Part shown: positions 1 through 59,197 of the stretch, in pieces
How the letters are laid out: each line of letters starts with the position of its first letter
Numbering within the stretch: position 1 is the first letter of the stretch
Virus record (IMG/VR): IMGVR_UViG_3300047325_000150
Length of the DNA stretch: 64,000 bases
Origin: a virus
Direction: 5' to 3' (one strand)
The notes under the pieces: model-generated
Told to the model about the DNA's origin: nothing
Databases searched by the model: none
What the model saw: the letters and a program-made list of their open reading frames with translations, nothing else
Translations under genes and position numbers: made by a program

Positions 1-213
1 TTTTTCAAAATTTAAAAGTTTTGCCATTAGGTTCAGTCGAACCCTTACAGCAATCTGCTCAAATTCAGCTGCTAGACCAATTAAAAGATCGGGTTTCAGA
101 GCTTGATGCAGAAATAAGTTTTGAAAAAATGGCAGACCGTTGATTATGAAAGATAGCAAGAATAAATTCGTTCGATTGGTTGACAATTTATAAAGATTTT
201 TCATACTTAGTGT

Positions 214-2349
214 ATGACTGAATATGATGATAGCCCAGACGAAGAATATTATGATGACGATGTAGGCGGGAATTATGTCCCAGATACAGATATCTTTGTA
301 TTTAAGATATTTGCTAATATGCTCAAATATAATAACAATGGTTACGGGGATGGAGCTATTGCAGAGTGCATATTAGATTACCCCGGATTTTCCGGTAAAT
401 CTGTTTTAGATAAAATCTATAATACAAAAAAATCATACGAGTCTTCTCGTAAGGATAGCGGAGAAAGACGCACTCATTTATTTTTTAGTGATTACATTAA
501 AAGACAAAACATTGTTGAATTTAGAAAAGAAATATTAGAATTGCATGGTGGTCTTGACCAACCATGGCCAATTTCTCAAAATGCAAAGGTATTATCTGGG
601 TTACTCGATCTTAACGAAACCGAAGAACTGCTGTTATGCTTGGGTATGAAGCTAAGCGATAGAGATTCGTCATATCAATTACGCGAAGTATTTTCTGCAT
701 TTACTGCTACAAACGAAAACAAAGAATTGAATGTTTTATATTCAAAAATGTTCGATCTTGGTACAATCGATATAGAAAATGCACTCGAGGGCTTTTTAGT
801 AAAAAGCAAGATATTATCTCTAGATGGCAGAGTTAAAGGCCTTTATTGCATCAATCCGGAATTCACAAAGATTTTCGTAAATGCAAAACTTACAAACGAA
901 AATATAGCGGATGTATTATTTCCTAGTAATTTAAGATCAAATCTGACAATACAAAATTATTCTCATATTGAAAAAGAAATAAAAATAACCGAAAGTATTA
1001 TAAATCAAGGTTTAATTTCAAAAGATAGAGGTACGAATATCATGTTCTGGGGGTTACCCGGAACTGGTAAAACCGAACTCGCATTGGTTCTGGCAAAAAA
1101 GAATGGTTGGAATTTAAGAGTCATAGGTGATATCTCAGACGGCGACGATAACGAGAAATCCAGAACACAACGCCTTGCTAGTTTAAAAATAGCAATGAAG
1201 CTATATGCAACTGATCTAAATACCGTATTATTGTTTGACGAAATGGAAGATATTTTTAGAAGCGATAAAGGGGGAGCCAGCGACGAATCATATAGTAAGG
1301 CCTTCATTAATCGAATTATAGAAACATCTAAAATACCAATAATTTGGACAACAAACGATTTAGTTAAGCTCGGGTCAGCAACACTTCGTCGTATGGTATA
1401 TAATATAAGTTTTCAGATTCCTCCTGCTCGTGCAAGAAAGAAGATATGGGACAATTATCTAAATCAATATAATCTAGTAATTGATGAAGAGATTGTTGAG
1501 AATTTTGCACTTAATTACGATATGGTTCCGTCACTTATTAATAATGCAGTAAAGATTACTGCACTTACGAAATGTGACACTAATCATATACCCGAGCTAT
1601 TAACTAAACTAGATACATTGGTTAACTACGGCGAAGAAAGAACCTTTGGCGGACATAAACCATCTCTCACTCCATATGATGCATCGTGTGCAAATACTGA
1701 CTTAGATTTGAATGATCTTACCAGCAAACTAATTGATGCAAATCCAAATTTTAGTCTTTGCTTGTACGGTCCTCCTGGTACAGGTAAAAGCGAGTTTGGT
1801 CGACATTTAGCTAAGAAACTAGGTAAAAAAGTTTTGTTTAAGAGGGCTAGCGATCTTGTATCTATGTGGTTGGGTGAAACAGAAAAGAATATTGCTGCTG
1901 CATTTAAAGAGTCTAGCGAAGAAGAAATGGTATTCGTAATCGATGAAGGAGATAGTTTTCTTCGTAGCAGAGAAGGTGCCGAACGTAGCTGGGAAGTAAG
2001 CCAAGTTAATGAAATGCTCAGCCAAATGGAAAAACACGACCAGCCGTTCATTATTACTACTAATATGATTGCTAATTTAGATAGCGCGGCATTACGTAGA
2101 TTTACATTCAAACTTGAATTCAAATTTATGCGTCCTGATCAAGTAGCCAAATTATTTAAAAGTTATTTTGGAGGAGATGCGCCATCATGGTTAATGAAGA
2201 ATGATATTCTCGCACCCGGTGATTTCGCAAACGTAAAACGCAAAGCTACTATTTTAAAAATTACTGATTTAAATGAAATAGCTAAAATGGTCGATGAAGA
2301 ATGTCATCTTAAGCCACAGAAAACTAAATCAATTGGGTTCACGAAATGA
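214..2349 (+). CDS. tandem AAA+ ATPase (two P-loop modules) with an acidic N-terminal domain of unknown function
   Basis: Two Walker A boxes (GLPGTGKTE and GPPGTGKSE). Two Walker B boxes (LLFDEMED, VFVIDEGD). The second module has an SRH-like AALRRF. The stop overlaps the next start (ATGA). Confidence 0.7.
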   Translation: MTEYDDSPDEEYYDDDVGGNYVPDTDIFVFKIFANMLKYNNNGYGDGAIAECILDYPGFSGKSVLDKIYNTKKSYESSRKDSGERRTHLFFSDYIKRQNIVEFRKEILELHGGLDQPWPISQNAKVLSGLLDLNETEELLLCLGMKLSDRDSSYQLREVFSAFTATNENKELNVLYSKMFDLGTIDIENALEGFLVKSKILSLDGRVKGLYCINPEFTKIFVNAKLTNENIADVLFPSNLRSNLTIQNYSHIEKEIKITESIINQGLISKDRGTNIMFWGLPGTGKTELALVLAKKNGWNLRVIGDISDGDDNEKSRTQRLASLKIAMKLYATDLNTVLLFDEMEDIFRSDKGGASDESYSKAFINRIIETSKIPIIWTTNDLVKLGSATLRRMVYNISFQIPPARARKKIWDNYLNQYNLVIDEEIVENFALNYDMVPSLINNAVKITALTKCDTNHIPELLTKLDTLVNYGEERTFGGHKPSLTPYDASCANTDLDLNDLTSKLIDANPNFSLCLYGPPGTGKSEFGRHLAKKLGKKVLFKRASDLVSMWLGETEKNIAAAFKESSEEEMVFVIDEGDSFLRSREGAERSWEVSQVNEMLSQMEKHDQPFIITTNMIANLDSAALRRFTFKLEFKFMRPDQVAKLFKSYFGGDAPSWLMKNDILAPGDFANVKRKATILKITDLNEIAKMVDEECHLKPQKTKSIGFTK

Positions 2350-2912
2350 ATAAAAGGTACTATGTTGTATCGGACCTACACCTTCATCACGAACGTCTTT
2401 GCACCTTCACTTTTAAAGATTCTGATAGACTAATAAGACGTCATCCGTTTACGGATTCTGGATTTACTGACATAGAAGATCATGATCAATTTATCATTCA
2501 ACAATGGAATGATACAGTTTCTGCAGGAGATACCGTCTACGTCTTAGGGGATGTGGTTATAAATCGTAAAGGTTTGTACAAACTTGATTTGTTGAATGGT
2601 CGCAAAATTCTTGTACCAGGCAATCATGATATATTTCATATAGATGATTATAGAAATCATTTTGCAGATGTTCGCGGATATATCGTTAGAAACGAAGTTA
2701 TATTTTCGCATATTCCTGTTTATTCCGGGCAATTAGAACACAGATTTAAGCTAAATTGTCATGGTCATACCCACCAGAATTTAGTCATGATGAAGAAAAA
2801 CGGAGCAGATATATCTGATCCCAGATATATGAATGTGTGCTATGAACAACTGAAAGATTATAAACCAATAAGCATTGATGAAGTTTATGCGTATAGAGAT
2901 AGAGTAAGGTAG
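2346..2912 (+). CDS. calcineurin-like metallophosphoesterase
   Basis: Motifs VSDLHLH, LGDVV, GNHD and GHTH in canonical order. Translationally coupled to the upstream AAA gene. Confidence 0.8.
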   Translation: MNKRYYVVSDLHLHHERLCTFTFKDSDRLIRRHPFTDSGFTDIEDHDQFIIQQWNDTVSAGDTVYVLGDVVINRKGLYKLDLLNGRKILVPGNHDIFHIDDYRNHFADVRGYIVRNEVIFSHIPVYSGQLEHRFKLNCHGHTHQNLVMMKKNGADISDPRYMNVCYEQLKDYKPISIDEVYAYRDRVR

Positions 2913-2925
2913 AATAAATATATGC

Positions 2926-3531
2926 ATGAAATTAAATGAGCTAAATTCATCTCTGTTATCACCAATAAAAACTGCAACGAAAGATAAGTTGCCAAACAAT
3001 GTTGCTATAGATTCAATAAAAGGAACTTATAGTAGATTATTAACCGATAATGGATGGAAAAGAGTAAGCAGCGGTTTATATGCAAATATATATTCAATTG
3101 ACGGTTACCAATGGTATTTAAAGATATTTGAATCTCGGGATGTATGCTATAAATCATTCGTTGAATTCGTAAAAGAAAATCCTAATAAACACTTTCCTAA
3201 ATTTAGAGGTAGTATTGTTCAATTAAACAATAAATTTTCAGCTATTAGAGTAGAGCCTCTTCAATTATTAGATGGAAAAGAAGCTAACAATTATTACAAA
3301 TATGGATTACTGTTAAATAATTTCGAAGGAGATTTTACTGGTGTAAATCCAATTATTAATGGTATGCCAGTAAAGAAATTTGAAAAAGAACATGCATCGA
3401 TATGTGATGCAATTAAACTATTGCATTTTAACTTTGCTACAACTAAATGTCATTATGATATGCATATGGATAATATAATGAGTCGAAATGGTGTTCCGGT
3501 TATAATTGATCCATATAGTACAGGTACGTAA
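2926..3531 (+). CDS. small protein-kinase-like fold protein (APH/atypical kinase-like)
   Basis: Gly-rich start and WYLKIF (beta3 Lys). Catalytic-loop-like HYDMHMDNIM followed by IIDP. Confidence 0.4.
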   Translation: MKLNELNSSLLSPIKTATKDKLPNNVAIDSIKGTYSRLLTDNGWKRVSSGLYANIYSIDGYQWYLKIFESRDVCYKSFVEFVKENPNKHFPKFRGSIVQLNNKFSAIRVEPLQLLDGKEANNYYKYGLLLNNFEGDFTGVNPIINGMPVKKFEKEHASICDAIKLLHFNFATTKCHYDMHMDNIMSRNGVPVIIDPYSTGT

Positions 3532-3897
3532 ACTGTCGACCACTAACTGCATGGACAACCATTCTTGTATTATATTCAAAAAATATATTATAAGATTGAT
3601 ATGCTATTTTGGTTGCTAATTTTGTGAAAACGAGTGATAGATGGCTAGTGTTACGGTAGTTGTTACCAAAATTAAACATACAAGATTGGTTGAATTCTAA
3701 TTCAGAAAGTTGGTTTTATATCGATAATCTGGCTCCTCCTGCTAACGCACCTAGAAGCAGATTTGATTATGAAATTGCAATTTAGATTATCGTGGGTTTA
3801 ACGCCTGTGGAAATACCTCTAGCGGGGATGATGTCATGACGTCGTCTAGTTATGTATTGATGAAGCAGGAAGCCGCTTGAGCTTGCTCAGCGGTAGT

Positions 3898-4599
3898 TCA
3901 CTTGTAAAGTGATTTAATTTTATCTAAAATTAATATAATTTTTTCTTTAAAATCTTCATCTTTACGAAAATCAGTTCCATTAAATTCTATCGGAACTGGT
4001 TTTTCTGCAAAAGATCTTCCATCAGAATATATAAGATTTAATGTATTTGAGTTTTGTTCGATTGCAAATATGGCTCTGGTTTTATGTAATTTGCCGCCGT
4101 TGGTATTATATACCAGCATTGCTTGTGCCATTTCGCTATATATTTTTGGCGAACCATATACCTTAATTTCGCCCTGAAAAGTATTATCTCCAAACGCTTC
4201 TAATGTGTAAATAACATCAGATTTACCACTCAGTTCCCACATATATTTTTTAATATAATTTGGATCTCGATATGTATTAATTTGAATAATATTTTTAAAT
4301 GAATTTTTATCTGGCTGCCAGTCAGGCACAGTTGGGTTAGACCGTGTAACTGGTTCGGGTGTCAGTGGATCAATTTTATGATATTTAGATTTATCTGTTT
4401 TTAATATATCATATGAACGATTTAGTAATGCAAGGGCTTGATCTGTTGCTTTGCCATAATTATGCAAATCTACTATTTTCTTTTTCCATAATTTTTTTAA
4501 TTCTTCTGGCGTTAGTCGATTGAATTCGCCTGCACTGATTCCAAAATCTCTAAGTGCATCTAAAACACTATAATCGTCCGTTAATTCGTATAGTTTCAA
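3898..4599 (-). CDS. hypothetical protein
   Basis: Long ORF with coding-like composition and no recognisable motif. Confidence 0.4.
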   Translation of the reverse strand: MKLYELTDDYSVLDALRDFGISAGEFNRLTPEELKKLWKKKIVDLHNYGKATDQALALLNRSYDILKTDKSKYHKIDPLTPEPVTRSNPTVPDWQPDKNSFKNIIQINTYRDPNYIKKYMWELSGKSDVIYTLEAFGDNTFQGEIKVYGSPKIYSEMAQAMLVYNTNGGKLHKTRAIFAIEQNSNTLNLIYSDGRSFAEKPVPIEFNGTDFRKDEDFKEKIILILDKIKSLYK

Positions 4600-4654
4600 G
4601 TGATTACCCTATATCTATGTATATTATTTAGTAAAAATTTTTCATAAATAACGG

Positions 4655-4915
4655 ATGGATACATTCGATTCTTTTTTATATAATTTAGAATCAATGATTG
4701 ATAATTTGCACAACATGAGTAAAGATACCAGATATAAAGCAAGAATACAACAGGTAATTTACGATCTTGATGAAGTTTATGCAGATATTTCCGAAGATAT
4801 TGATTTTATTCGAGCGGGTGTATTAGATAAATTTACCGATGCTCATATACAGACCTACAATATATTTGAATCTAAAATAAAACTACTTTTGACTCAGTGG
4901 GAAAAAGATCACTGA
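4655..4915 (+). CDS. hypothetical small protein
   Basis: ORF with upstream AT-rich leader. Confidence 0.3.
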   Translation: MDTFDSFLYNLESMIDNLHNMSKDTRYKARIQQVIYDLDEVYADISEDIDFIRAGVLDKFTDAHIQTYNIFESKIKLLLTQWEKDH

Positions 4916-5931
4916 ACTCTATCAATAAATATTGGAGAGTTAATAACTTCTACTTCAACAATTTTTATTGTTTCACTTCCATCTGTATTAATACGGTCTA
5001 ATTTTATAGTAACAAATTGTCCTACAGTTAATGATTCTTCAAAATTTGTCCATTCTGCAATAGATGAAAACGTTCTACCATTTGCAGAAATTAATTCATC
5101 ATATGGGTTTATAGCTTTGGCAGGACCGGTTGGATCAGGTGACATAACAGCTTCGTTGTTTATAAAAGATAAGGCAATACCTATATAAGGATGTACAATT
5201 TTTTTACCAGATAGCAAATTATCAACAGTTTGTTTTACTATATCACTTTGAATGGCAAAATTTAATCCTATACTACCGTTGCCTCCGTTTGTATTAATAA
5301 AATCGCTCATGCCAACGATGCGACCATTTGCATTAATGACATCGCCTCCACTATTACCTTCATTTATACTTGCATCGGTTTGAATATATCTGGAAAACGG
5401 ATTAATGGTTTGAAAAATTCTCGAAGTATAACTCACAATCCCCTGTGTAATAGTATCAGTTATACCAACAGGATTACCTATAGCCCAGACGGTTTCGCCT
5501 ACTTGCTGTTCGTTACTATTTGCCCAATTTAAATATGTAGGTTTAAATAATGCAATATTTTGTTGATCTGCATTATTAACTTTAATTATTGCAATATCTA
5601 ATACAGGATCATATGCATAAACGCTACATTGAAGAGCTTTTGCAATACCATCTCTTGTAACAAATACTGCTTTTGAATTTTCTACTACATGATAAGCAGT
5701 AACAATATATCCATCTTTATACCAAATGCCAGTACCTAAACCTTCTTCGGTATCTGAAATACTTCGTACTGTTATCGTTGAATCTAATAATTTTGTATAA
5801 TTTTGAGTTAAGTAACTTTCAGTTACTGGTTTTATTGGGGGATTTAAATAATTATATAATCTGTAGCAGGCTACATTGTTTAAAACAAGTAATAAAAGAA
5901 AACCAAGGCTGAGTAATGCATATTTTCTCAT
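4909..5931 (-). CDS. secreted trypsin-like (S1/HtrA-type) serine protease
   Basis: N-terminal signal/TM segment. Catalytic triad contexts TAYHVV (His), DIAIIKV (Asp) and GNSGGDV (Ser). Confidence 0.8.
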   Translation of the reverse strand: MRKYALLSLGFLLLLVLNNVACYRLYNYLNPPIKPVTESYLTQNYTKLLDSTITVRSISDTEEGLGTGIWYKDGYIVTAYHVVENSKAVFVTRDGIAKALQCSVYAYDPVLDIAIIKVNNADQQNIALFKPTYLNWANSNEQQVGETVWAIGNPVGITDTITQGIVSYTSRIFQTINPFSRYIQTDASINEGNSGGDVINANGRIVGMSDFINTNGGNGSIGLNFAIQSDIVKQTVDNLLSGKKIVHPYIGIALSFINNEAVMSPDPTGPAKAINPYDELISANGRTFSSIAEWTNFEESLTVGQFVTIKLDRINTDGSETIKIVEVEVINSPIFIDRVQ

Positions 5932-6016
5932 TGAGATTCCTAAATTAAGTGCTTACTTTATTTATTGAATTATCTACCTATTTATATAATAAATAAATCA
6001 TCAAGGAATTTTATTA

Positions 6017-6805
6017 ATGAAGTTATTTCTAAATCAAGATTATAAAATAGATTTTAAGAACATTTTTTTCGTATATTTGGTATATTTATTGGGTGTTGTA
6101 TCTACTCTATTTTTTTCGTGGCAATTTGGATTTATAAACATTGCTTTTCATTATGATGAATCGTATTTTACATTGTTAATTTCTGCATTGTATGGTATTT
6201 TTGAAACTGTGTGCGGAATTAAAATATACCAATTAAGCAAAACTATTATTAAAGCAAAAAAACATCTGTGGTTGATGAGACAAATGAAAAACTTGACAGT
6301 ATTTCAACGAAACGATGTAGTATTTTACGGAGATGGTCATCAATTAGAATATGAAATTGAGGATGGTTATTTGCGTAAACATATTCTAGATTTACTTAAT
6401 AAAAAAGCCGCATCTGGTAAGAAAATTACTAACAAGACATTATTGTCAACCGTTTCATCTACAGTGGTAGAAAAGCATAATATTGCATATACATTTACCG
6501 AAGTTTTGATCTGGCTAGGATTGATTGGTACAATTTTAGGCATAATTCTTACTTTCTATCCGTTTATAACGGGTACAGTGATTATTGATGCAAATAATGC
6601 GCAGCATACTCTTGCAATAATATTTAAGGGTGTAGGAAGTGCGTTTTTTCCAAGCATAGTTGCTGCAATTTATAGTTTATTTTTGAAAGTAAGTGATTTT
6701 ATATTAATTAAAGGCAGTAATGAATTAGTTACTTTGATAAGCGATGGAAGTGATATCACAATATCACCAACAATAAACAATCCGGGTGTTCGTAAAAATT
6801 TATGA
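6017..6805 (+). CDS. MotA/TolQ/ExbB-like multi-pass membrane protein
   Basis: Several TM helices. LIWLGLIGTILGII resembles the conserved LGLLGTVxGI of TolQ/ExbB. Confidence 0.45.
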   Translation: MKLFLNQDYKIDFKNIFFVYLVYLLGVVSTLFFSWQFGFINIAFHYDESYFTLLISALYGIFETVCGIKIYQLSKTIIKAKKHLWLMRQMKNLTVFQRNDVVFYGDGHQLEYEIEDGYLRKHILDLLNKKAASGKKITNKTLLSTVSSTVVEKHNIAYTFTEVLIWLGLIGTILGIILTFYPFITGTVIIDANNAQHTLAIIFKGVGSAFFPSIVAAIYSLFLKVSDFILIKGSNELVTLISDGSDITISPTINNPGVRKNL

Positions 6806-7464
6806 GACAACGAGAGAAACATTCAACTTTAGCCTATTTAAATTTTGCTTTCATTTGGGGCAAAAGTTTATTGGCTATTTTAGTTGTAATGTTTGCGTTT
6901 ATTGCTGTAAAAAATATAAGTCCGATAAAACCTAATGCACAAATAGAAATTATACTAACTTGGGATGATAATAGTAAAAACGATATAGATCTTTGGGTAA
7001 ATCCTCCAGATAACAAACCAGTCTATTATGGCAATAGAGAATCAGAAGGCGGACTAGTATCATTAGATAGAGATGATTTGGGAATCAATGACCAAACAAT
7101 TTTAAATGGTAATATAATTGATGCTACAGCGCGGGACGAAATTGTAAGTATTCGCGGTCCAGTCACCGGACACTACTCAGTTGTAGCTAATTTATATACA
7201 TACCGACAAGAATCTGGTTTACAAGTTGGCGATACATTACCTATTCCAATACATGTTAAAATACAAATTGTTCAACTTACCCCTTGTAACGGAATTGTTT
7301 ATACTGCAACAAATATAATTACTTTAAATAATCAAGAATTATTTTTAGTAAATTTTGATTTAAATTCAGTTGGCACAATTACCAATATAGATAATCAGCA
7401 TCCATTTAGTGTAATGAGTTTAGCAGCAAGTACAAGTACTTTTGTATCGGATGAATTGCAATGA
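6802..7464 (+). CDS. single-pass membrane-anchored protein with a 190-aa extracytoplasmic domain
   Basis: N-terminal TM helix, then a soluble domain. Start overlaps the previous stop (ATGA). Confidence 0.4.
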   Translation: MRQREKHSTLAYLNFAFIWGKSLLAILVVMFAFIAVKNISPIKPNAQIEIILTWDDNSKNDIDLWVNPPDNKPVYYGNRESEGGLVSLDRDDLGINDQTILNGNIIDATARDEIVSIRGPVTGHYSVVANLYTYRQESGLQVGDTLPIPIHVKIQIVQLTPCNGIVYTATNIITLNNQELFLVNFDLNSVGTITNIDNQHPFSVMSLAASTSTFVSDELQ

Positions 7465-7994
7465 TAATATTAATGTTTGCGGTTTTTGTACTTATGGTTC
7501 TTATTATAAGTTGTGTAATATATAGTTCTCCAGTCAAAAATTACATCAAATATCTATCTCTTATTCTTATGTTTGCAGTATTGTTTTCAAATTGGTATTA
7601 CGATCAAAGTATTGCAGGATATGCAACACCGCAAATATTACCGACACAATTTCAATTAATTTGGGGTCAAGAAAATCAACATACTTCTATCGAGCTATGG
7701 CTTTATGCAAAACAAGGAAATTCATTTTCAACCCAATCTAGATTATACACCATGCCATGGAGTATGAAAATGGCACAAACATTATCTTCTGCAAAAAAAT
7801 CATTGGCTGATGGTATTCCGGTATTCATGGGTAAACCAAACCAAGGTAAATCCGGTAAAAAATCTTCCGGGGGCATGTTTGGAAAATTTAAAGGTAAAGT
7901 AGTTTCTGCAATTTCTCAAATATACAATGGTATGAATAGTTCTGGAGATGAACTGCAAATAATTAAGAATCCCATAGACGAACCAACAAAATAA
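7461..7994 (+). CDS. membrane protein with a Lys/Gly-rich C-terminal tail
   Basis: Two N-terminal TM helices. Overlapping start with the upstream gene. Confidence 0.4.
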   Translation: MIILMFAVFVLMVLIISCVIYSSPVKNYIKYLSLILMFAVLFSNWYYDQSIAGYATPQILPTQFQLIWGQENQHTSIELWLYAKQGNSFSTQSRLYTMPWSMKMAQTLSSAKKSLADGIPVFMGKPNQGKSGKKSSGGMFGKFKGKVVSAISQIYNGMNSSGDELQIIKNPIDEPTK

Positions 7995-8357
7995 TTTAGC
8001 TTATAGCATCTAAACCAATGAGGGGTTGGCCTAATGCGCCGTAATATTTCCCCTTAAATTGCCCAACGCCATCCGCCCGGCTCGTATACCTGTAAATGAA
8101 CCATACATATAGTCTCATTTGGATGAGATTGTCGCAAACAATTAACGGCTGCATATGTAGATGCAGACATTACCTCAATCCAACTATTTTGTAAACGGCT
8201 CCTGAATCTAAATTTTTTCATAATCTTAGTCCAAAGTGTTACAACTTGTGGTATTATAGCATCAATATTTTATGGTGCAAGTTGTATTTTGTATGATTTT
8301 TGGTTGACAAATCGTCTATATATGCTACATTTATGGTAAGATATAGGAGAAACCACG

Positions 8358-8636
8358 ATGCGTTTTGTGATTTATAATACAAACACAGGCAAGAGCAAAG
8401 AGCGATTTACAACCGAAAGAGGTGCCAAAATTGCCCTTGCTGCCCTGCGCCGCAAAGAGGCAAAACGTCCCGAAAAACAGCAAATTGTTTATGCTATTAT
8501 GCCTGAGGATCGTTATGAATCCGAAGTTAATATTATGGTTGAACGTATTAACTTTATGACTGGGAAGCCGTTCATGGAAAAGCTTGATACGTTATATACT
8601 GCAAGCCCGTGCTCAGAAACGTATTGGTCTTCATAA
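8358..8636 (+). CDS. hypothetical protein
   Basis: RBS AGGAGA 8 nt upstream of the ATG. Downstream of a TTGGTTGACA promoter box at 8300-8309. Confidence 0.45.
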   Translation: MRFVIYNTNTGKSKERFTTERGAKIALAALRRKEAKRPEKQQIVYAIMPEDRYESEVNIMVERINFMTGKPFMEKLDTLYTASPCSETYWSS

Positions 8637-8901
8637 AAAATGATAAAAATGCATTTGACATGCTGGTCAAGGGGGTTATATTTCATCACTAATTATGTTC
8701 CGAGGATGGCCTTGGAATCACCTACAAATGAGTATTCTTTCGATTTGAAAGGAGATTCAAACAGTGATTTCGTATGAGGCATTGAAGGAAGCTAGGGAAT
8801 CCACGATATGAGCGCTAAGAAAGAAACTTTTCGCATTAAATCACGAAATGGCATCACGCAAGCGCCGTATTCATCGCGCATAGCAGCACAGAAAGCTGCG
8901 G

Positions 8902-9291
8902 ATGCAGCTAATGCTCAGGCACCAGAACAAGGATGGCACGTGGTGCCTGAGTCTCACTTTGTCAGGGAATCAAACCCATGACCCTACGACGGTCCCGGCT
9001 GGCGCTTGTGGCAGCGTTATCTCTATTGGAGATTTGCAAAATGAGCACCATGCCTTGGGCCTTTTACGTGCAAAACAAAAAGGAAAACATTATATGACTA
9101 CCAAACAAGAAAAACGCGCCATGGCGCGCAAAGCTGAGCGTATGATTAGGCTTGCATATCAGTTAGAACATGAAGCATCCGGTATGCGACAAATAACAGA
9201 TAAATACGCGAGTTGGATCAACAGCATTGCTTCCGATTGCGGTAAATGCGGCCGCTCCATGCTTGATGCGGTAGAGAAAACAGCAGCATGA
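8902..9291 (+). CDS. hypothetical protein in a GC-elevated island
   Basis: ORF inside an approximately 50% GC patch (8640-9950). Cys-containing C-terminus. Alternative start at 9094. Confidence 0.35.
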   Translation: MQLMLRHQNKDGTWCLSLTLSGNQTHDPTTVPAGACGSVISIGDLQNEHHALGLLRAKQKGKHYMTTKQEKRAMARKAERMIRLAYQLEHEASGMRQITDKYASWINSIASDCGKCGRSMLDAVEKTAA

Positions 9292-9926
9292 ACTTTCGAA
9301 AAGTAGGTGCAGTTGCGTTTCCGCAAGCACAAGGCCGTAAAGTCAATATGATGCCTTTTATTATGGGCGATCGTTCCTCAATTCCTGGGGAGTATCATGA
9401 TTATCTCCCGATGATCGAAGCATGTGATGTGCGAGATGAAATTGGAAAGGTTGGTTACCTAACATTTGACGAACAGTTCGTAACCACCGGGACTCATCGT
9501 CGTGGCGGAATCCATACCGAAGGCTGGGGTAATATTGGTTGGGTCGGCGGTTCTTGGGGCGACGGAAGTTTGAATGCCGCAGGCTGGGGTGCGTGGGGAG
9601 GCAATGCTAACGGCGGGCTGTTCATTGCTAATAGTGTTCCGGACAGTTGTGAACTTTATGATGCGAAAATTACCGATACGGTGTTTGGTGGCGCAGTGAG
9701 CGACGAACAAGTGAAAGGTATTTCACCTGTTAGAATGCCGGCAAATACATTGTTTTGGCTGCACGATCGCACTCCCCATGCTTCCCTTCCCGTGAATAAT
9801 ACCGAGCGCCAATTTTTTCGATTGGTTACTAGCGAAGTAAGCGTTTGGTTTGCAAAACATTCGACACTGAATAGATTGGGTGTAGCCCCGTGCTGCAAGA
9901 TCATCGAGATAGATAAATTCCAATAA
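9288..9926 (+). CDS. hypothetical Gly/Trp-rich protein in a GC-elevated island
   Basis: GWGNIGWVGGSWGDG ... GWGAWGGNANGG repeats. ATGA overlap with the upstream ORF. Confidence 0.4.
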   Translation: MNFRKVGAVAFPQAQGRKVNMMPFIMGDRSSIPGEYHDYLPMIEACDVRDEIGKVGYLTFDEQFVTTGTHRRGGIHTEGWGNIGWVGGSWGDGSLNAAGWGAWGGNANGGLFIANSVPDSCELYDAKITDTVFGGAVSDEQVKGISPVRMPANTLFWLHDRTPHASLPVNNTERQFFRLVTSEVSVWFAKHSTLNRLGVAPCCKIIEIDKFQ

Positions 9927-9952
9927 GACAGTAAGATTAAACCGTAAATAGG

Positions 9953-9980
9953 TTTGACATATATCGATCACTGATTATAG
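9953..9980 (+). promoter_or_regulatory. sigma-70-type promoter (TTGACA-16-TATAGT) upstream of the rIIA-like gene
   Basis: -35 TTGACA at 9953-9958 and -10 TATAGT at 9975-9980. Confidence 0.5.
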
Positions 9981-10021
9981 TTAGATAAAGATAACTTTTA
10001 CCAACTATAATCAGGAATCAT

Positions 10022-53646: not shown

Positions 53647-54507
53647 TTGGAAAGATGTTTTACGTATATTAGATTAGGTACTCAAATGAACAATGATGAA
53701 TTTGGTAAACGTATGAAAAGATTTGAATCATACGAAACACAACGCACATTCCTGCCAGGACTTCCGATTTATGCAAGATTAGACGGGCGCGGATTCTCTG
53801 TATTCACTAAAGGTATGGAAAAACCGTATGATGAAAGACTGTCTAAATTAATGAGTGCGACAACAAAGCATCTTGTTGAAAAAACTCATGCCAAATTTGG
53901 GTATTCCCAAAGCGATGAAATCTCTCTCATATTTAATAATGACGATATTCTCGGAGATATATTCTTTGCTAGAAAAATATTCAAGCTTACTAGTGTGTTA
54001 GCGAGCATGGCGACTGCTTATTTCATGTTAAATATACGCAATTACTTTGACGAAGAAAGTGCAAACTATGAGTCAAGGTTACCGCATTTCGATGCAAGGG
54101 TAATTCAATTTCCATCTAAAATCGAAGCATCAAATATGGTACTTTGGCGTACAATAGATGCTAATAGAAATGCAATAAGTATGGCGGCTCAATCAAAATT
54201 TTCACATAAAAGCTTAAAGGGTGTGTCTAGTTTGCAAATGAAAGAAAAATTACTTAAATTTGCGGGAATTAACTTTGATGAATACCCTATGCATTTTAAG
54301 CAAGGCGTTTTCTTTCATCGAGTCCTAAAAGAAAAAACACTATCACCCGAAGTGTTGGCGTTAATTCCTGAACATGAACGAGCTGAGGCTGCGTTGAAAA
54401 CTTATACTAGATCAAAAGTTGAAGAAATTCAAATGCCAATGTTTCATACTGTGTCAAATAAAGATGGTGTAATATTTAATGCCGAACCCCCTACACTTTT
54501 TAATTGA
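53647..54507 (+). CDS. Thg1-like protein (tRNA-His guanylyltransferase / 3'-5' RNA polymerase family)
   Basis: Signature ARLDGRGFSVFTKG and YSQSDEISLIF motifs. Likely real start at the internal Met (MNNDEFGKRMKRF, 53689). Confidence 0.8.
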   Translation: MERCFTYIRLGTQMNNDEFGKRMKRFESYETQRTFLPGLPIYARLDGRGFSVFTKGMEKPYDERLSKLMSATTKHLVEKTHAKFGYSQSDEISLIFNNDDILGDIFFARKIFKLTSVLASMATAYFMLNIRNYFDEESANYESRLPHFDARVIQFPSKIEASNMVLWRTIDANRNAISMAAQSKFSHKSLKGVSSLQMKEKLLKFAGINFDEYPMHFKQGVFFHRVLKEKTLSPEVLALIPEHERAEAALKTYTRSKVEEIQMPMFHTVSNKDGVIFNAEPPTLFN

Positions 54508-56713: not shown

Positions 56714-56788
56714 TGCCCAGTAGATCAATGGTAGATCAAATGACTTTGAATCATTAGGTTCCTCGTTCGAGTCGAGGCTGGGCATCCA
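56714..56788 (+). tRNA. tRNA-Gln (TTG), CCA encoded
   Basis: U1:A72 acceptor TGCCCAG/CTGGGCA. D stem GATC/GATC. Anticodon arm AATGA-CTTTGAA-TCATT. T arm CCTCG-TTCGAGT-CGAGG. Confidence 0.8.
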
Positions 56789-57309
56789 ATATATTCAATG
56801 GGTTAAACCCATTCTTTAATTCTTTTTAATAGTTCTTGATATGTAATATCACTTTTGCCGCTTTTTTGTGCGTTTTCTGGCAATTTGCTGGATGTGATAT
56901 ATGATTTGAATCATATCCGTTATACCAAGCATCGGCTTTACTAATAATATGATCTTTAACTAGTGCATTTGAATTTGAATTCCAAGTTGGATGATATAAT
57001 CCAACTGTATGAAAGTTTTCATACCCAGGTACAAGTTAATATATTGAAGATATAAATAAGATGGGGTTGCACTGTTTGAATGCGGCATTGAATGCAGAGA
57101 ATAAGTTCTGCAGCCTAGGTAATTGATCTTCTCCGGGACTTGCTGAAATACGCCCCCGGAGAAGTAATTACGCCTCCAAAACATATATAGTGATGTACGG
57201 GTTTTGTAAACCTGAAAATCCGGCGCAAGTCCGGATGGAGGCTCCAGTTTTAAGCCGACGTAGGCCAATGGTAGAGTCACGATTCTTTTACCGGGTACCA
57301 AGTTAACAT

Positions 57310-57387
57310 GTCCTTGTAGCGCAATTGGTAGGAGGCAACTGACTTAAGATCAGAACAGTGCGAGTTCGAATCTCGCCAAGGACACCA
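57310..57387 (+). tRNA. tRNA with Leu-reading anticodon TAA, short variable arm, weak D stem; CCA encoded
   Basis: Acceptor GTCCTTG/CAAGGAC, A73. T arm GCGAG-TTCGAAT-CTCGC. Anticodon stem CTGA/TCAG with loop CTTAAGA. D stem only GC/GC plus two mismatches. Confidence 0.5.
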
Positions 57388-57396
57388 AATATATAT

Positions 57397-57473
57397 GCCA
57401 CTGTAGTGCAACGGTAGGAGACAGCAGTTTTAGAAACTGTACAGTGCTGGTTCGAATCCAGTCAGTGGCACCA
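57397..57473 (+). tRNA. tRNA with Leu-reading anticodon TAG, short variable arm; CCA encoded
   Basis: Acceptor GCCACTG/CAGTGGC, A73. T arm GCTGG-TTCGAAT-CCAGT. Anticodon arm GCAGT-TTTAGAA-ACTGT. Confidence 0.55.
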
Positions 57474-58190
57474 AATATATGCCCATATATATAGATTTTA
57501 CGATAATATTAATGTTAGAAAATTTTGTAGTAATTATAGCAAAGTTGTGCTGGGAGCTTAAAGATGAATTTTTGGTAATTTCTAGATAGAAATGCATCTG
57601 GTATTTTTATAACAATTATTATTAACGGTGAAAAAGAAAAAGAGTTTACTTTTGAAGACATTCGAACTGCACAAGATGCAGTTCAAAAAAGCTTTCCCAA
57701 TATTGATTATAATTGGGATGCAGACGAAGAAGGTTTAAATTATATACTTGATTTTCTTTATGCAGGTGATGAATACCATGCAGAAGTGCAAGCAACAAAC
57801 GTTGTTGAGTATAAATTAGATCATCGTAAAATCTAAATAGACTGCGGAGGGGTGACGAGTGTTCCTGTAAAGGAATGGGTCACAGTTTTGTATAAGACGT
57901 ATTTTTAACAAAACCTTGCTATTCTGTAGGGTAGAAGTTGGTTAGTTAAAGATTAAAGTAGGATTTGATCCTTCCATCTTATACATTAAAATTAATGGGC
58001 CATTAGTGCTAATAGTAAAACACTGGTTTTGCAATCCGGAGTCAGCGGGGCGGTACCGCTATGGTCCATAAAATTTTAGGTAAATTACGTTCACCAGCAT
58101 TCCAAAGTAAAATTCGAGTTTTTATGGGGCATGGGCAGGATTCAAACAGTGCAACGTCGGTGCAAATCCGTCCTGCGACGCCAATATAAA

Positions 58191-58266
58191 GCCTTGTTAG
58201 CCGAATGGTTAAGGCAACTCACTCGTAATGAGTAGATTGGGAGTTCGATTCTCTCACAAGGCACCA
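58191..58266 (+). tRNA. tRNA-Thr (CGT), CCA encoded
   Basis: G1-C72 and C2-G71 acceptor GCCTTGT/ACAAGGC. Anticodon arm ACTCA-CTCGTAA-TGAGT. T arm GGGAG-TTCGATT-CTCTC. Confidence 0.8.
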
Positions 58267-58277
58267 ATAAAAATTTT

Positions 58278-58358
58278 GCTCGTGTAGGCTATTTGGTATC
58301 GCCGGTGAACTTAAAATTCATGTCGTTTTTGCTGGTTCGACTCCAGTCACGAGCACCA
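58278..58358 (+). tRNA. tRNA with Leu-reading anticodon TAA and a 9-nt unpaired variable region; CCA encoded
   Basis: Acceptor GCTCGTG/CACGAGC, A73. Anticodon arm GTGAA-CTTAAAA-TTCAT. T arm GCTGG-TTCGACT-CCAGT. Confidence 0.55.
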
Positions 58359-58365
58359 CAGTAAT

Positions 58366-58444
58366 GCCCAAGTATGCAAATTGGTAAAGCAGCAATTCTC
58401 AAAAAGTTGTGATTTTGACGGTTCGAGTCCGTCGTTGGGCACCA
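58366..58444 (+). tRNA. tRNA with Leu-reading anticodon CAA, 7-nt variable region; CCA encoded
   Basis: Acceptor GCCCAAG/GTTGGGC (one G-G mismatch at 7:66), A73. Anticodon arm CAATT-CTCAAAA-AGTTG. T arm GACGG-TTCGAGT-CCGTC. Confidence 0.55.
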
Positions 58445-58449
58445 AGTTT

Positions 58450-58565
58450 AAAGGATCTTTACAGCATATAATTTGCCTTCCAAGCCGAGAGTGCGGGTTC
58501 GATTCCCGCTTTCCCTACAATGAGGGGAAATAGTTTAATGGTAGAACACGTAAAAAGTAGATCCT
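58450..58565 (+). other. permuted/split tRNA-like locus 1 (3' half followed by its complementary 5' half)
   Basis: Order: AAAGGATCT, 34 nt, T arm GCGGG-TTCGATT-CCCGC, acceptor-3' TTTCCCT, A, CAA, tga, acceptor-5' GGGGAAA, TA, D arm GTTT-AATGGTA-GAAC, then AGATCCT. Confidence 0.45.
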
Positions 58566-58689
58566 GTTTTTTGATATGGTATAGACGTAACTCAGAGAAA
58601 GAGTTGACGCTCAGAAGCAGTGTCGATGGTTAAAGTCCTTCCATCTATGGACATGTTATGAAAAGAAAAAGTTGAGTTGCTCTCAACAT

Positions 58690-58760
58690 TGGGGAATTCG
58701 TATAATGGTATTACGGTAGCTTTGCAAGCTACTCACAGCGGTCCGATTCCGCTATTCTCC
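58690..58760 (+). tRNA. tRNA-Ala (TGC), no encoded CCA
   Basis: Acceptor GGGGAAT/ATTCTCC with the G3-U70 Ala identity pair. Anticodon arm GTAGC-TTTGCAA-GCTAC. T arm AGCGG-TCCGATT-CCGCT. Confidence 0.8.
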
Positions 58761-58998
58761 CCTAATTTTATAAAATGATCAATTCAGCATTAAACAATGA
58801 TGGATAAATTTTATTGCTCAAACGAAAACGACATTCTTTCCTATATAGTTTTGATTCATGAAATAAATTCAATGAACGACATTGTATATCACATCTATTT
58901 TGATTTCTATATTTTACTAAACCCAGGAAATCCTTGCAAGATTTTAGCTTGATCGGTTTGAGTCCGATATGTTCCATTATCTATTTTGTAGGCTTTGT

Positions 58999-59077
58999 CA
59001 GCCATTGGGGAAGTCTGGTCGTTCCCGCCTGTTTTGGAAACAGGAGATTTACGTTGGTTCAAATCCAACATGGCTGA
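58999..59077 (+). tRNA. tRNA-Pro (TGG), no encoded CCA
   Basis: C1-G72 acceptor CAGCCAT/ATGGCTG. D stem GGGA/TCCC with an 11-nt D loop. Anticodon arm CCTGT-TTTGGAA-ACAGG. T arm GTTGG-TTCAAAT-CCAAC. Confidence 0.7.
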
Positions 59078-59099
59078 CAAAACCTACGAAATAAAGTTT

Positions 59100-59194
59100 A
59101 AGGATCTGTTACAGCAAAAATGAAACTTTATTGGTTCAAATCCAATTTTCTCCGCCATTTATGGGGAAAATGCTCGTGGTAGAGCATAGATCCT
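59100..59194 (+). other. permuted/split tRNA-like locus 2
   Basis: Order: AAGGATCT, 22 nt, T arm ATTGG-TTCAAAT-CCAAT, acceptor-3' TTTCTCC, G, CCA, tttat, acceptor-5' GGGGAAA, AT, D arm GCTC-GTGGTA-GAGC, then AGATCCT. Confidence 0.45.
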
Positions 59195-59197
59195 GTT

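Follow-up and report, generated by a model that had tools for sequence, protein, structure and literature searches.

A predicted T7K-like minimal protein kinase in a huge-phage genome lies beside a metallophosphoesterase and a tandem AAA+ ATPase, as one of three neighbouring genes that probably evolved independently

The protein kinase of phage T7 (gp0.7, here T7K; UniProt P00513, PHROG 2828/15752) has a minimal architecture yet is a proven, very active protein kinase, and it disarms many bacterial defence systems through pervasive phosphorylation (PMC13645617). Ser216 was described as its inhibitory autophosphorylation site, and a DPV motif replaces DFG in its homologues, of which only about 220 were found (190 viral and 32 bacterial proteins), the standalone jumbophage versions being left uncharacterised (PMC13645617). 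We analysed a stretch of 64,000 nucleotides (nt) of viral DNA (IMG/VR record IMGVR_UViG_3300047325_000150; hereafter the window), the beginning of which encodes a tandem AAA+ ATPase, a metallophosphoesterase (MPE) and a small kinase-like protein, the product of the third open reading frame (ORF3). A preliminary description of the window had presented the three genes as one translationally coupled module, similar to nucleic-acid end-processing or signalling modules and of a kind used in anti-defence or host takeover. The results presented below make it rather probable that the locus consists of three same-strand, evolutionarily independent genes at the margin of a variable accessory segment in the genome of a huge (jumbo or mega) phage, and that ORF3 is a T7K-like kinase. 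The three genes are as follows.

214-2349, plus strand: type II (tandem) classical AAA+ ATPase of 711 amino acids (aa); PF00004 twice, phrog_10401.
2346-2912, plus strand: small calcineurin-like metallophosphoesterase of 188 aa; PF00149, phrog_547.
2926-3531, plus strand: predicted standalone T7 gp0.7 (T7K)-like minimal protein kinase of 201 aa; PHROG, hhalign, fold and residue mapping.

These coordinates agreed exactly with the ORF listing, and all three domain calls made earlier (tandem AAA+, metallophosphoesterase, kinase-like) were correct. The spacing of the genes was also as first described. The ATPase gene ends in ...ACG AAA TGA, with the ATG of the MPE gene at 2346 and 4 nt common to both (an ATGA overlap), and 13 nt (aataaatatatgc) lie between the MPE stop codon TAG (2910-2912) and the ORF3 ATG at 2926.

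In single-sequence searches with ORF3, the best kinase match in Pfam was APH (E 0.14), NCBIfam and PADLOC gave no matches, phmmer against PDB returned noise only, and phrog_15752, annotated as T7 gp0.7 kinase, was matched at 3e-5. The indexed protein search yielded one relative, P0002 (27% identical), and the alignment of the two proteins contained the hallmarks of kinases, namely GDGTFGSV in P0002, the V-L-K lysine, D-x-H-x-x-N and IIDP. When a 62-sequence alignment of the family was compared with T7 gp0.7 (NC_001604) using hhalign, the match covered gp0.7 residues 65-218 with a probability of 98.6% and an E value of 6.1e-16, and the family hidden Markov model (HMM) matched the same protein at 4.6e-16. 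A total of 61 of the 62 family members matched phrog_15752 (best 3.8e-16) and 16 matched phrog_2828, the PHROG of T7K itself. The AlphaFold2 model of ORF3 reached a predicted local distance difference test score (pLDDT) of 89.2 and a predicted template modelling score (pTM) of 0.84 with the 62-sequence alignment; such a deep alignment was needed, as two sequences gave a pLDDT of 36.6. Foldseek searches of BFVD with this model returned "protein kinase" entries from T7-like phages at template modelling (TM) scores of 0.6-0.7 and E values down to 2e-10, including A0A7L7SMK1, which is named in the T7K paper (PMC13645617); Ser/Thr kinases were matched as well. The kinase-like catalytic loop noticed earlier is present as H176-Y-D-M-H-M-D-N183 (HxDxHxxN) followed by I194-D-P196, and the kinase-like assignment was upheld by profile and structure searches (PHROG, hhalign, Foldseek). 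No Walker A motif (GxxxxGK[ST] or GK[ST]) was found in the ORF3 sequence. To our knowledge, a P-loop is present in all known polynucleotide kinases. ORF3 is thus not a polynucleotide kinase, and the proposed nucleic-acid end-processing was unsupported for this protein, the fold of which is protein-kinase-like.

The residues of ORF3 could be mapped onto those of T7K: K66 corresponds to K93, D178 to D195, H180 to H197, N183 to N200, D195-P196 to D213-P214, Y197 to V215 and S198 to S216. The two proteins, both encoded by lytic phages, share the kinase fold, the catalytic Lys/Asp/Asn/Asp set, a D-P motif in place of DFG and a Ser after this motif. They differ in the third residue of the motif (Val in T7K, Tyr in ORF3, in which D195-P196-Y197 replaces DFG) and in the glycine loop, which lies around G50 in ORF3 and is degenerate. 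T7K belongs to Autographiviridae and comprises 359 aa with a C-terminal shut-off/DNA-binding domain, whereas the 201-aa ORF3 stems from a huge phage and lacks this domain, which is a hallmark of the Autographiviridae orthologues and not of the kinase superfamily. Because ORF3 ends 6 aa past D195, it is a homologue of the kinase domain only and not an orthologue of full-length gp0.7. The standalone jumbophage homologues of T7K (Salmonella phage Munch, Escherichia phage G17; PMC13645617), judged only by their description in that paper, resemble ORF3 in consisting of the kinase domain alone, the SO domain having been lost, in a non-conserved DPV valine and in their large phage genomes. By homology and fold, ORF3 is therefore predicted to be a protein kinase of the T7K superfamily, a new member closest in architecture to these standalone jumbophage variants, and it is a clear case of a huge-phage T7K relative that consists of the kinase domain alone.

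By analogy with T7K, ATP would be held by the glycine loop and K66, D178 would act as the catalytic base, and N183 and D195 would bind Mg2+, while Ser198, directly after the D-P motif, would be placed for inhibitory autophosphorylation in the manner of Ser216. After infection, ORF3 may phosphorylate host and probably also phage proteins on Ser/Thr(/Tyr), thereby redirecting the host machinery or disabling defence proteins. As it has no C-terminal DNA-binding shut-off domain, it should not share the bias of T7K toward nucleic-acid-binding targets. A role of ORF3 in host takeover or anti-defence is probable on this analogy; the corresponding suggestion in the preliminary description fits ORF3 through its homology to T7K (PMC13645617).

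A profile built from ORF3 and P0002 retrieved 2,383 cluster representatives (clusters at 50% identity), 1,027 of them at E<=1e-10 and most of them 175-230 aa long. The ORF3 clade is largely metagenomic, and its 2,383 clusters compare with the 190 viral and 32 bacterial homologues reported before (PMC13645617), which suggests that the T7K-like family is at least 10 times larger in metagenomes. In a tblastn search of 50,697 phage records, ORF3 matched a single record and the family member P0138 matched three. The 62-sequence alignment had G43, K66, D72, Y75, P91, R108, L112, D178, N183, M185 and D195 as invariant residues; the D-P motif was kept in 161 of 170 clade domains with a variable third residue, and scattered members matched Kinase-PolyVal, YrbL, Choline_kinase and APH in Pfam. 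Should these mini-kinases be active, phosphorylating the host on a global scale would be a strategy that is widespread among huge phages rather than peculiar to T7. Frequent forms in this family are fused "polykinases" with 3-5 complete kinase domains (P0123, 1021 aa; P0124, 813 aa; P0125, 1769 aa; P0160, 1343 aa), most domains of which retain the D..N...DP catalytic motifs, and tandem arrays of 2-3 adjacent paralogous kinase genes in IMG/VR viral contigs. Further examples of polykinases or tandem arrays were proteins P0128, P0129 and P0143 and loci L017, L018, L019, L023, L026, L029, L034, L035 and L051. Neither form appears to be described in the T7K paper (PMC13645617). In Rhizobium phage RHph_I1_18 (L008, 41-1866), two adjacent genes (annotations: hypothetical for the first, putative protein kinase for the second) matched the mini-kinase HMM (5.8e-35 and 2.1e-33), and an HD_4-domain phosphohydrolase was encoded 0.7 kb away on the other strand.

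The co-conservation expected of a three-gene module was not observed: no examined relative of any of the three genes had the other two nearby, and the AAA+/MPE/kinase arrangement occurred only in contigs identical to the window (L004 and L005). The AAA+ homologues of L009 (74% identical), L010 and L011 had neither MPE nor kinase within 6 kb in tblastn and HMM scans, and the Pfam labels of the called genes revealed neither around the homologue in L063, a locus outside these scans. The genes downstream of the AAA+ gene were three small genes and a single-module AAA in L009, a HAD hydrolase and a PRTase_3 protein in L063, and other genes in L010, L011 and the P0004 contig. Conversely, the three closest MPE relatives had no kinase-family gene within 6 kb, and the kinase relative P0002 had no AAA+ or MPE within 10 kb. 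The 27 IMG/VR loci with 37 kinase-family ORFs, which were found by a back-translated NPHFPKF DNA pattern and had at least 2 kb on both sides in 7 cases, contained neither this MPE family nor the tandem AAA+. Only in this window does an MPE of the phrog_547 family adjoin a T7K-like kinase.

A tblastx comparison with L009, the closest relative, was in line with these data. The two loci shared the AAA+ gene (250-2340) and window positions 8472-8630, 10022-11914 and 12254-13083, the last of which corresponds to a gene of L009 that has a Pfam match to Phage_T4_rIIB, and the intervening window segment of roughly 6 kb (about 2350-8470), which includes the MPE and kinase genes, was absent from L009. 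The 4-nt overlap was uninformative by itself, as at least nine other same-strand gene pairs in the window overlap (e.g., 6802-6805, 7461-7464, 9288-9291 and 16297-16303) and overlaps of 4-7 nt between consecutive genes are routine here; the ATGA overlap alone is thus no evidence of a functional link. Given the missing co-conservation, the reading as a three-gene module was refuted. The triad does not constitute a system, none of its genes is categorically new, and their juxtaposition appears to reflect chance or a loose or lineage-specific association, a result that guards against over-interpretation of the triad. The 2350-8470 segment additionally encodes a 233-aa protein, an HtrA-like protease with trypsin and PDZ domains (4909-5931, minus strand), and a MotA/ExbB-like membrane protein, with two small genes behind it that have overlapping starts and stops and no Pfam match (6017-7994).

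Several observations weigh against the view of three independent genes that include a T7K-like kinase. The close packing of the genes (4-nt overlap, 13-nt gap) would, together with the lack of predicted terminators between them, also be compatible with a functional unit, and the flanks were short in many of the IMG/VR kinase loci. The identity between ORF3 and T7K was only about 22% over 147 aligned columns. Compared with canonical kinases, the ORF3 clade is much more strongly truncated, its single-domain members ending a median of 6 residues past the catalytic Asp, so that the predicted activity is extrapolated from T7K. Finally, the surroundings of kinase-family genes contained phosphatase-type ORFs at about 3.4 times the density of background loci, and the claimed independence of MPE and kinase could therefore be wrong.

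The last point bears on the possibility that the MPE is the dedicated partner of the ORF3 mini-kinase and removes the inhibitory phosphate from Ser198 or phosphate from phage proteins, thus setting the length or the targets of a promiscuous phosphorylation burst, with the AAA+ protein being unrelated. Autophosphorylation of Ser216 inactivates T7K, lambda phosphatase reactivated it in vitro, and ORF3 keeps a Ser at this position (PMC13645617 for T7K). MPE and ORF3 are encoded on the same strand in close succession. Lambda phosphatase is itself a metallophosphoesterase. Additionally, in an independent lineage (L021, L031, L050 and L055) an ORF for a CX5R phosphatase resembling dual-specificity phosphatases (DSP) is convergent with the kinase gene and overlaps it, two DSPc genes occur within 9 kb in the P0002 lineage, and a 283-aa Metallophos protein is encoded 7 kb from the kinase in L028. 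The density of ORFs with phosphatase motifs, with 5 of them in about 129 kb of kinase loci after de-duplication versus 3 in 267 kb of background, was suggestive but not significant (conditional binomial P about 0.08; 0.13 when the discovery locus was excluded). Moreover, essentially all of the 1,267 phage records with a member of the MPE family lack this kinase, and Ser/Thr occupies the Ser216-equivalent position in only 22% of the kinase clade. The Ser/Thr phosphatases of the PPP type (lambda PPase/NinI) carry GDxxDRG and GNHE signatures, neither of which is met by the MPE, which reads GDVVINRKG and GNHD. We consequently regard the dedicated partnership as unlikely. A broader form of this idea, in which huge phages would pair constitutively active, promiscuous T7K-like mini-kinases with a co-encoded phosphatase of any fold (MPE here, DSP/CX5R in other lineages) as a self-contained kinase/phosphatase timer, is likewise unlikely. 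Were such a timer to exist, it would shape the phosphorylation burst during infection or shield phage proteins from phosphorylation, and the tandem arrays and polykinases of 3-5 domains would represent diversification against host defences. The lineage with the convergent phosphatase ORF is represented by huge-phage contigs of 119-310 kb; in L050, the kinase and DSP-like genes (4450-5037, plus strand, and 5015-5593, minus strand; DSP motif FHCFAGISRS) overlap by 23 nt at their 3' ends.

ORF3 could also be a small-molecule kinase in the style of APH, choline kinase or Kdo kinase, or a catalytically dead or scaffolding pseudokinase. ORF3 or family members gave weak matches to APH, Choline_kinase and YrbL, and choline kinase and fructosamine-3-kinase were among the PDB matches; no activation segment or substrate-binding helices follow the DFG-like Asp, and the glycine loop reads S-S-G-L-Y-A as compared to G-x-G-x-F-G in P0002. 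The similarity to T7K was, however, far stronger (E 6e-16 versus 0.07), the catalytic residues are invariant in the family and all present in ORF3, and T7K, which has the same minimal architecture, is proven to be very active (PMC13645617). A substrate other than protein, or the loss of catalysis, thus seems unlikely, and ORF3 is better viewed as a T7K-like protein kinase.

The AAA+ protein contains the two complete AAA modules ascribed to it earlier, PF00004 matching in two stretches (E 3e-37), and its phrog_10401 match had an E value of 2.3e-74. The modules are the following.

1015-1533 (about aa 268-440), plus strand: AAA module D1; Walker A GLPGTGKT at aa 280, Walker B VLLFDE at aa 338.
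1726-2184 (about aa 505-657), plus strand: AAA module D2; Walker A GPPGTGKS at aa 519, Walker B MVFVIDE at aa 572.

D1 has the sensor-1 residue N381 and the Arg fingers R392/R393, and no aromatic pore-loop-1 motif was present in this module. D2 carries pore loop 1 (M551-W-L-G554), the sensor-1 residue N617 and the Arg fingers R628/R629, and its best matches were IetA and Cdc48 D1. Among 32 homologues (37-75% identity), Walker A and B, the sensor-1 Asn and the Arg fingers of both modules were invariant, as was the D2 pore loop (M-W-L/V-G). The N-terminus is acidic, as had been noticed (14 D/E versus 2 K/R in the first 60 aa), and poorly conserved among homologues; the conserved N-domain spans about aa 120-250. 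The best relatives in PDB were Cdc48, p97 and VAT, with which the protein shares membership in the classical AAA clade, two stacked modules and complete Walker A/B, sensor-1 and Arg-finger residues. An aromatic-hydrophobic-Gly pore loop in one ring is common to the AAA+ protein and the Cdc48/p97/VAT/IetA group, but it occurs here in D2 only, unlike in these comparison systems. No N-domain family was among the Pfam matches for aa 1-240, the CDC48-type double-psi barrel included, and the scores of 48.5 bits for TIGR01243 (CDC48; cut-off 803) and 103 bits for NF042959 (IteA; cut-off 510, D2 alone matching) were far below the cut-offs. The PADLOC match to IetA (E 8e-35) was restricted to aa 508-654 within D2; IetA has only one module and a protease as its partner, in contrast to the two modules found here. 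The protein is predicted to be a hexameric protein unfoldase or remodeller with both nucleotide sites intact and a substrate-threading pore loop in D2. A total of 164 homologues passed E<=1e-20, and many of them were encoded by contigs 450-570 kb long. The family is specific to huge-phage contigs, its more distant bacterial copies standing in defence-island-like contexts, and a literature search on tandem AAA+ proteins of huge phages found nothing. The protein belongs to a huge-phage family that is uncharacterised, yet unmistakably of the classical AAA type.

An IetAS-like defence or anti-defence pair of the AAA+ protein with the nearby HtrA-like protease was considered and rejected, since the protease is of the wrong type, lies on the opposite strand and is absent from relatives. 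Two homologues, P0033 and P0080 (1035-1043 aa), were interrupted by intein/homing-endonuclease domains (PF14528, PF05203/PF05204), and several contigs of 545-562 kb encoded two paralogous tandem AAA+ copies. A homologue with 32% identity was found in L006 (MT835507.1, 11884-25470), a GC-rich "Bacteriophage sp." record, next to genes for a PLD-like protein, a WYL regulator, a GIY-YIG protein, a SIR2-like protein and a 404-aa protein with weak PADLOC matches to PDC-M27B/A and DrmC/ZacB. The L006 context is defence-island-like, and its DNA is probably bacterial.

The calcineurin-like phosphoesterase call was confirmed by five metal-binding motifs, all intact in the translation (D10-L-H12, G68-D69, G92-N-H-D95, H122 and G140-H-T-H143); the PF00149 score was 21.8 bits (cut-off 21.5), and phrog_547 was matched at E 1e-43. 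The tblastn matches included T5-like, phiCbK-like, cyanophage, Staphylococcus, Listeria and Bacillus phages, with 32-44% identity to the members from cultured phages. The best solved relative was the uncharacterised Aquifex protein aq_1665 (PDB 1XM7), which, like the phrog_547 family, shares with the MPE a length of about 170-200 aa and the same five motifs. Members in T5-like, phiCbK-like and cyanophage genomes are annotated as 'phosphoesterase' or 'Ser/Thr phosphatase', and no characterised function or demonstrated substrate of the phrog_547 family was found in the literature. In T5-like phages a separate NinI-like protein phosphatase adjoins the phrog_547-family MPE, which argues that this family is not itself a classical protein phosphatase. 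Other phage contexts were heterogeneous, with either ribonucleotide reductase and endonuclease VII or replication genes as neighbours. The MPE is an ordinary member of a very common phage family, and it may act as a binuclear phosphomono- or diesterase on a nucleotide or nucleic-acid-type substrate, a tentative assignment.

A pairing of AAA+ and MPE through translational coupling, for instance with an unfoldase delivering substrates to the phosphoesterase and with ORF3 unrelated, would fit the ATGA overlap and the HAD-family hydrolase, a member of another phosphatase superfamily, that directly follows the AAA+ homologue on a 545-kb contig. It is nevertheless very unlikely, as no recognisable phosphohydrolase was encoded downstream in L009, L010, L011 or the P0004 contig, the MPE relatives do not lie beside this AAA+, and overlapping starts and stops are ubiquitous in this genome. 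A general rule of AAA+ followed by a phosphohydrolase was discarded, as it held in only one of five relatives.

The closest MPE relative, P0273 (55% identical), is encoded in L014 (3514-7682) in the order Metallophos (241 aa), Zeta_toxin/AAA_33 P-loop kinase, single AAA (358 aa), MPE and T4 Rnl1-type RNA ligase, a cluster that looks like an RNA-repair cassette. A single AAA of 358 aa resembling that of L014 is located downstream of the tandem AAA+ in L009. In T4 Pnk with Rnl1 and in bacterial Pnkp/Hen1, a P-loop kinase, a metallophosphoesterase and a ligase act together; at the present locus a kinase and a calcineurin-type phosphoesterase are likewise found together, but the kinase has a protein-kinase fold, no ligase is adjacent and the pairing is not conserved. 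That the MPE removes 2',3'-cyclic or 3'-phosphates and ORF3 phosphorylates 5'-OH ends, for example of tRNAs cut by anticodon nucleases, with the AAA+ protein as a helper, is barely credible: the L014 neighbourhood, the RNA ligase and Thg1 flanking the AAA+ homologue in L011, and the Thg1-like gene and 17 tRNA genes of the window would favour such end-healing, but ORF3 is a T7K homologue with a protein-kinase-like fold and no P-loop, no Pfam match to an RNA or DNA ligase was obtained in window 1-14 kb, and the three genes are not co-conserved.

The regulatory features predicted around the three genes were as follows.

180-207, plus strand: sigma-70-like promoter-like site, TTGACA-16 nt-CATACT with 10 of 12 matches, directly upstream of the AAA+ start codon.
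3826-3847, plus strand: weak terminator-like hairpin with a poor T-tail, inside the 366-nt gap between ORF3 and the convergent gene at 3898-4599 (minus strand).

The promoter-like site is only a possible operon promoter. Such sites were not enriched in positions 1-4700 (23 observed versus 24.1 in shuffles), and the 180-207 site is therefore a consensus match and not evidence of function. The hairpin may mark the end of a transcription unit. No terminator-like sites were predicted on the plus strand within 214-3531, and co-transcription of the three genes is plausible, even probable, to judge from the sequence. An alternative genetic code was rejected, as translation table 11 leaves the large ORFs intact and the 17 tRNAs include no suppressor. 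A megablast search of window positions 1-6000 against the 50,697 phage records gave no match.

The tRNA genes form an array at 56714-63360, in which ARAGORN identified 17 genes, including multiple Leu, Thr and Gln tRNAs. The Rfam search of the window matched tRNAs only, with 15 matches in the array, one of them an extra weak match at 57997-58068. A tRNA array of such size is typical of huge phages. The Thg1-like gene (53647-54507) lies just upstream of the array and is homologous to the Thg1 gene of L011. The guanine-cytosine (GC) content rises from about 31% in the flanks to 43% at 8001-10000. Positions 7995-8900 contained no Rfam match and no ORF reaching 120 aa, and the short stretch at 8472-8630, inside this GC-rich region, was conserved with L009.

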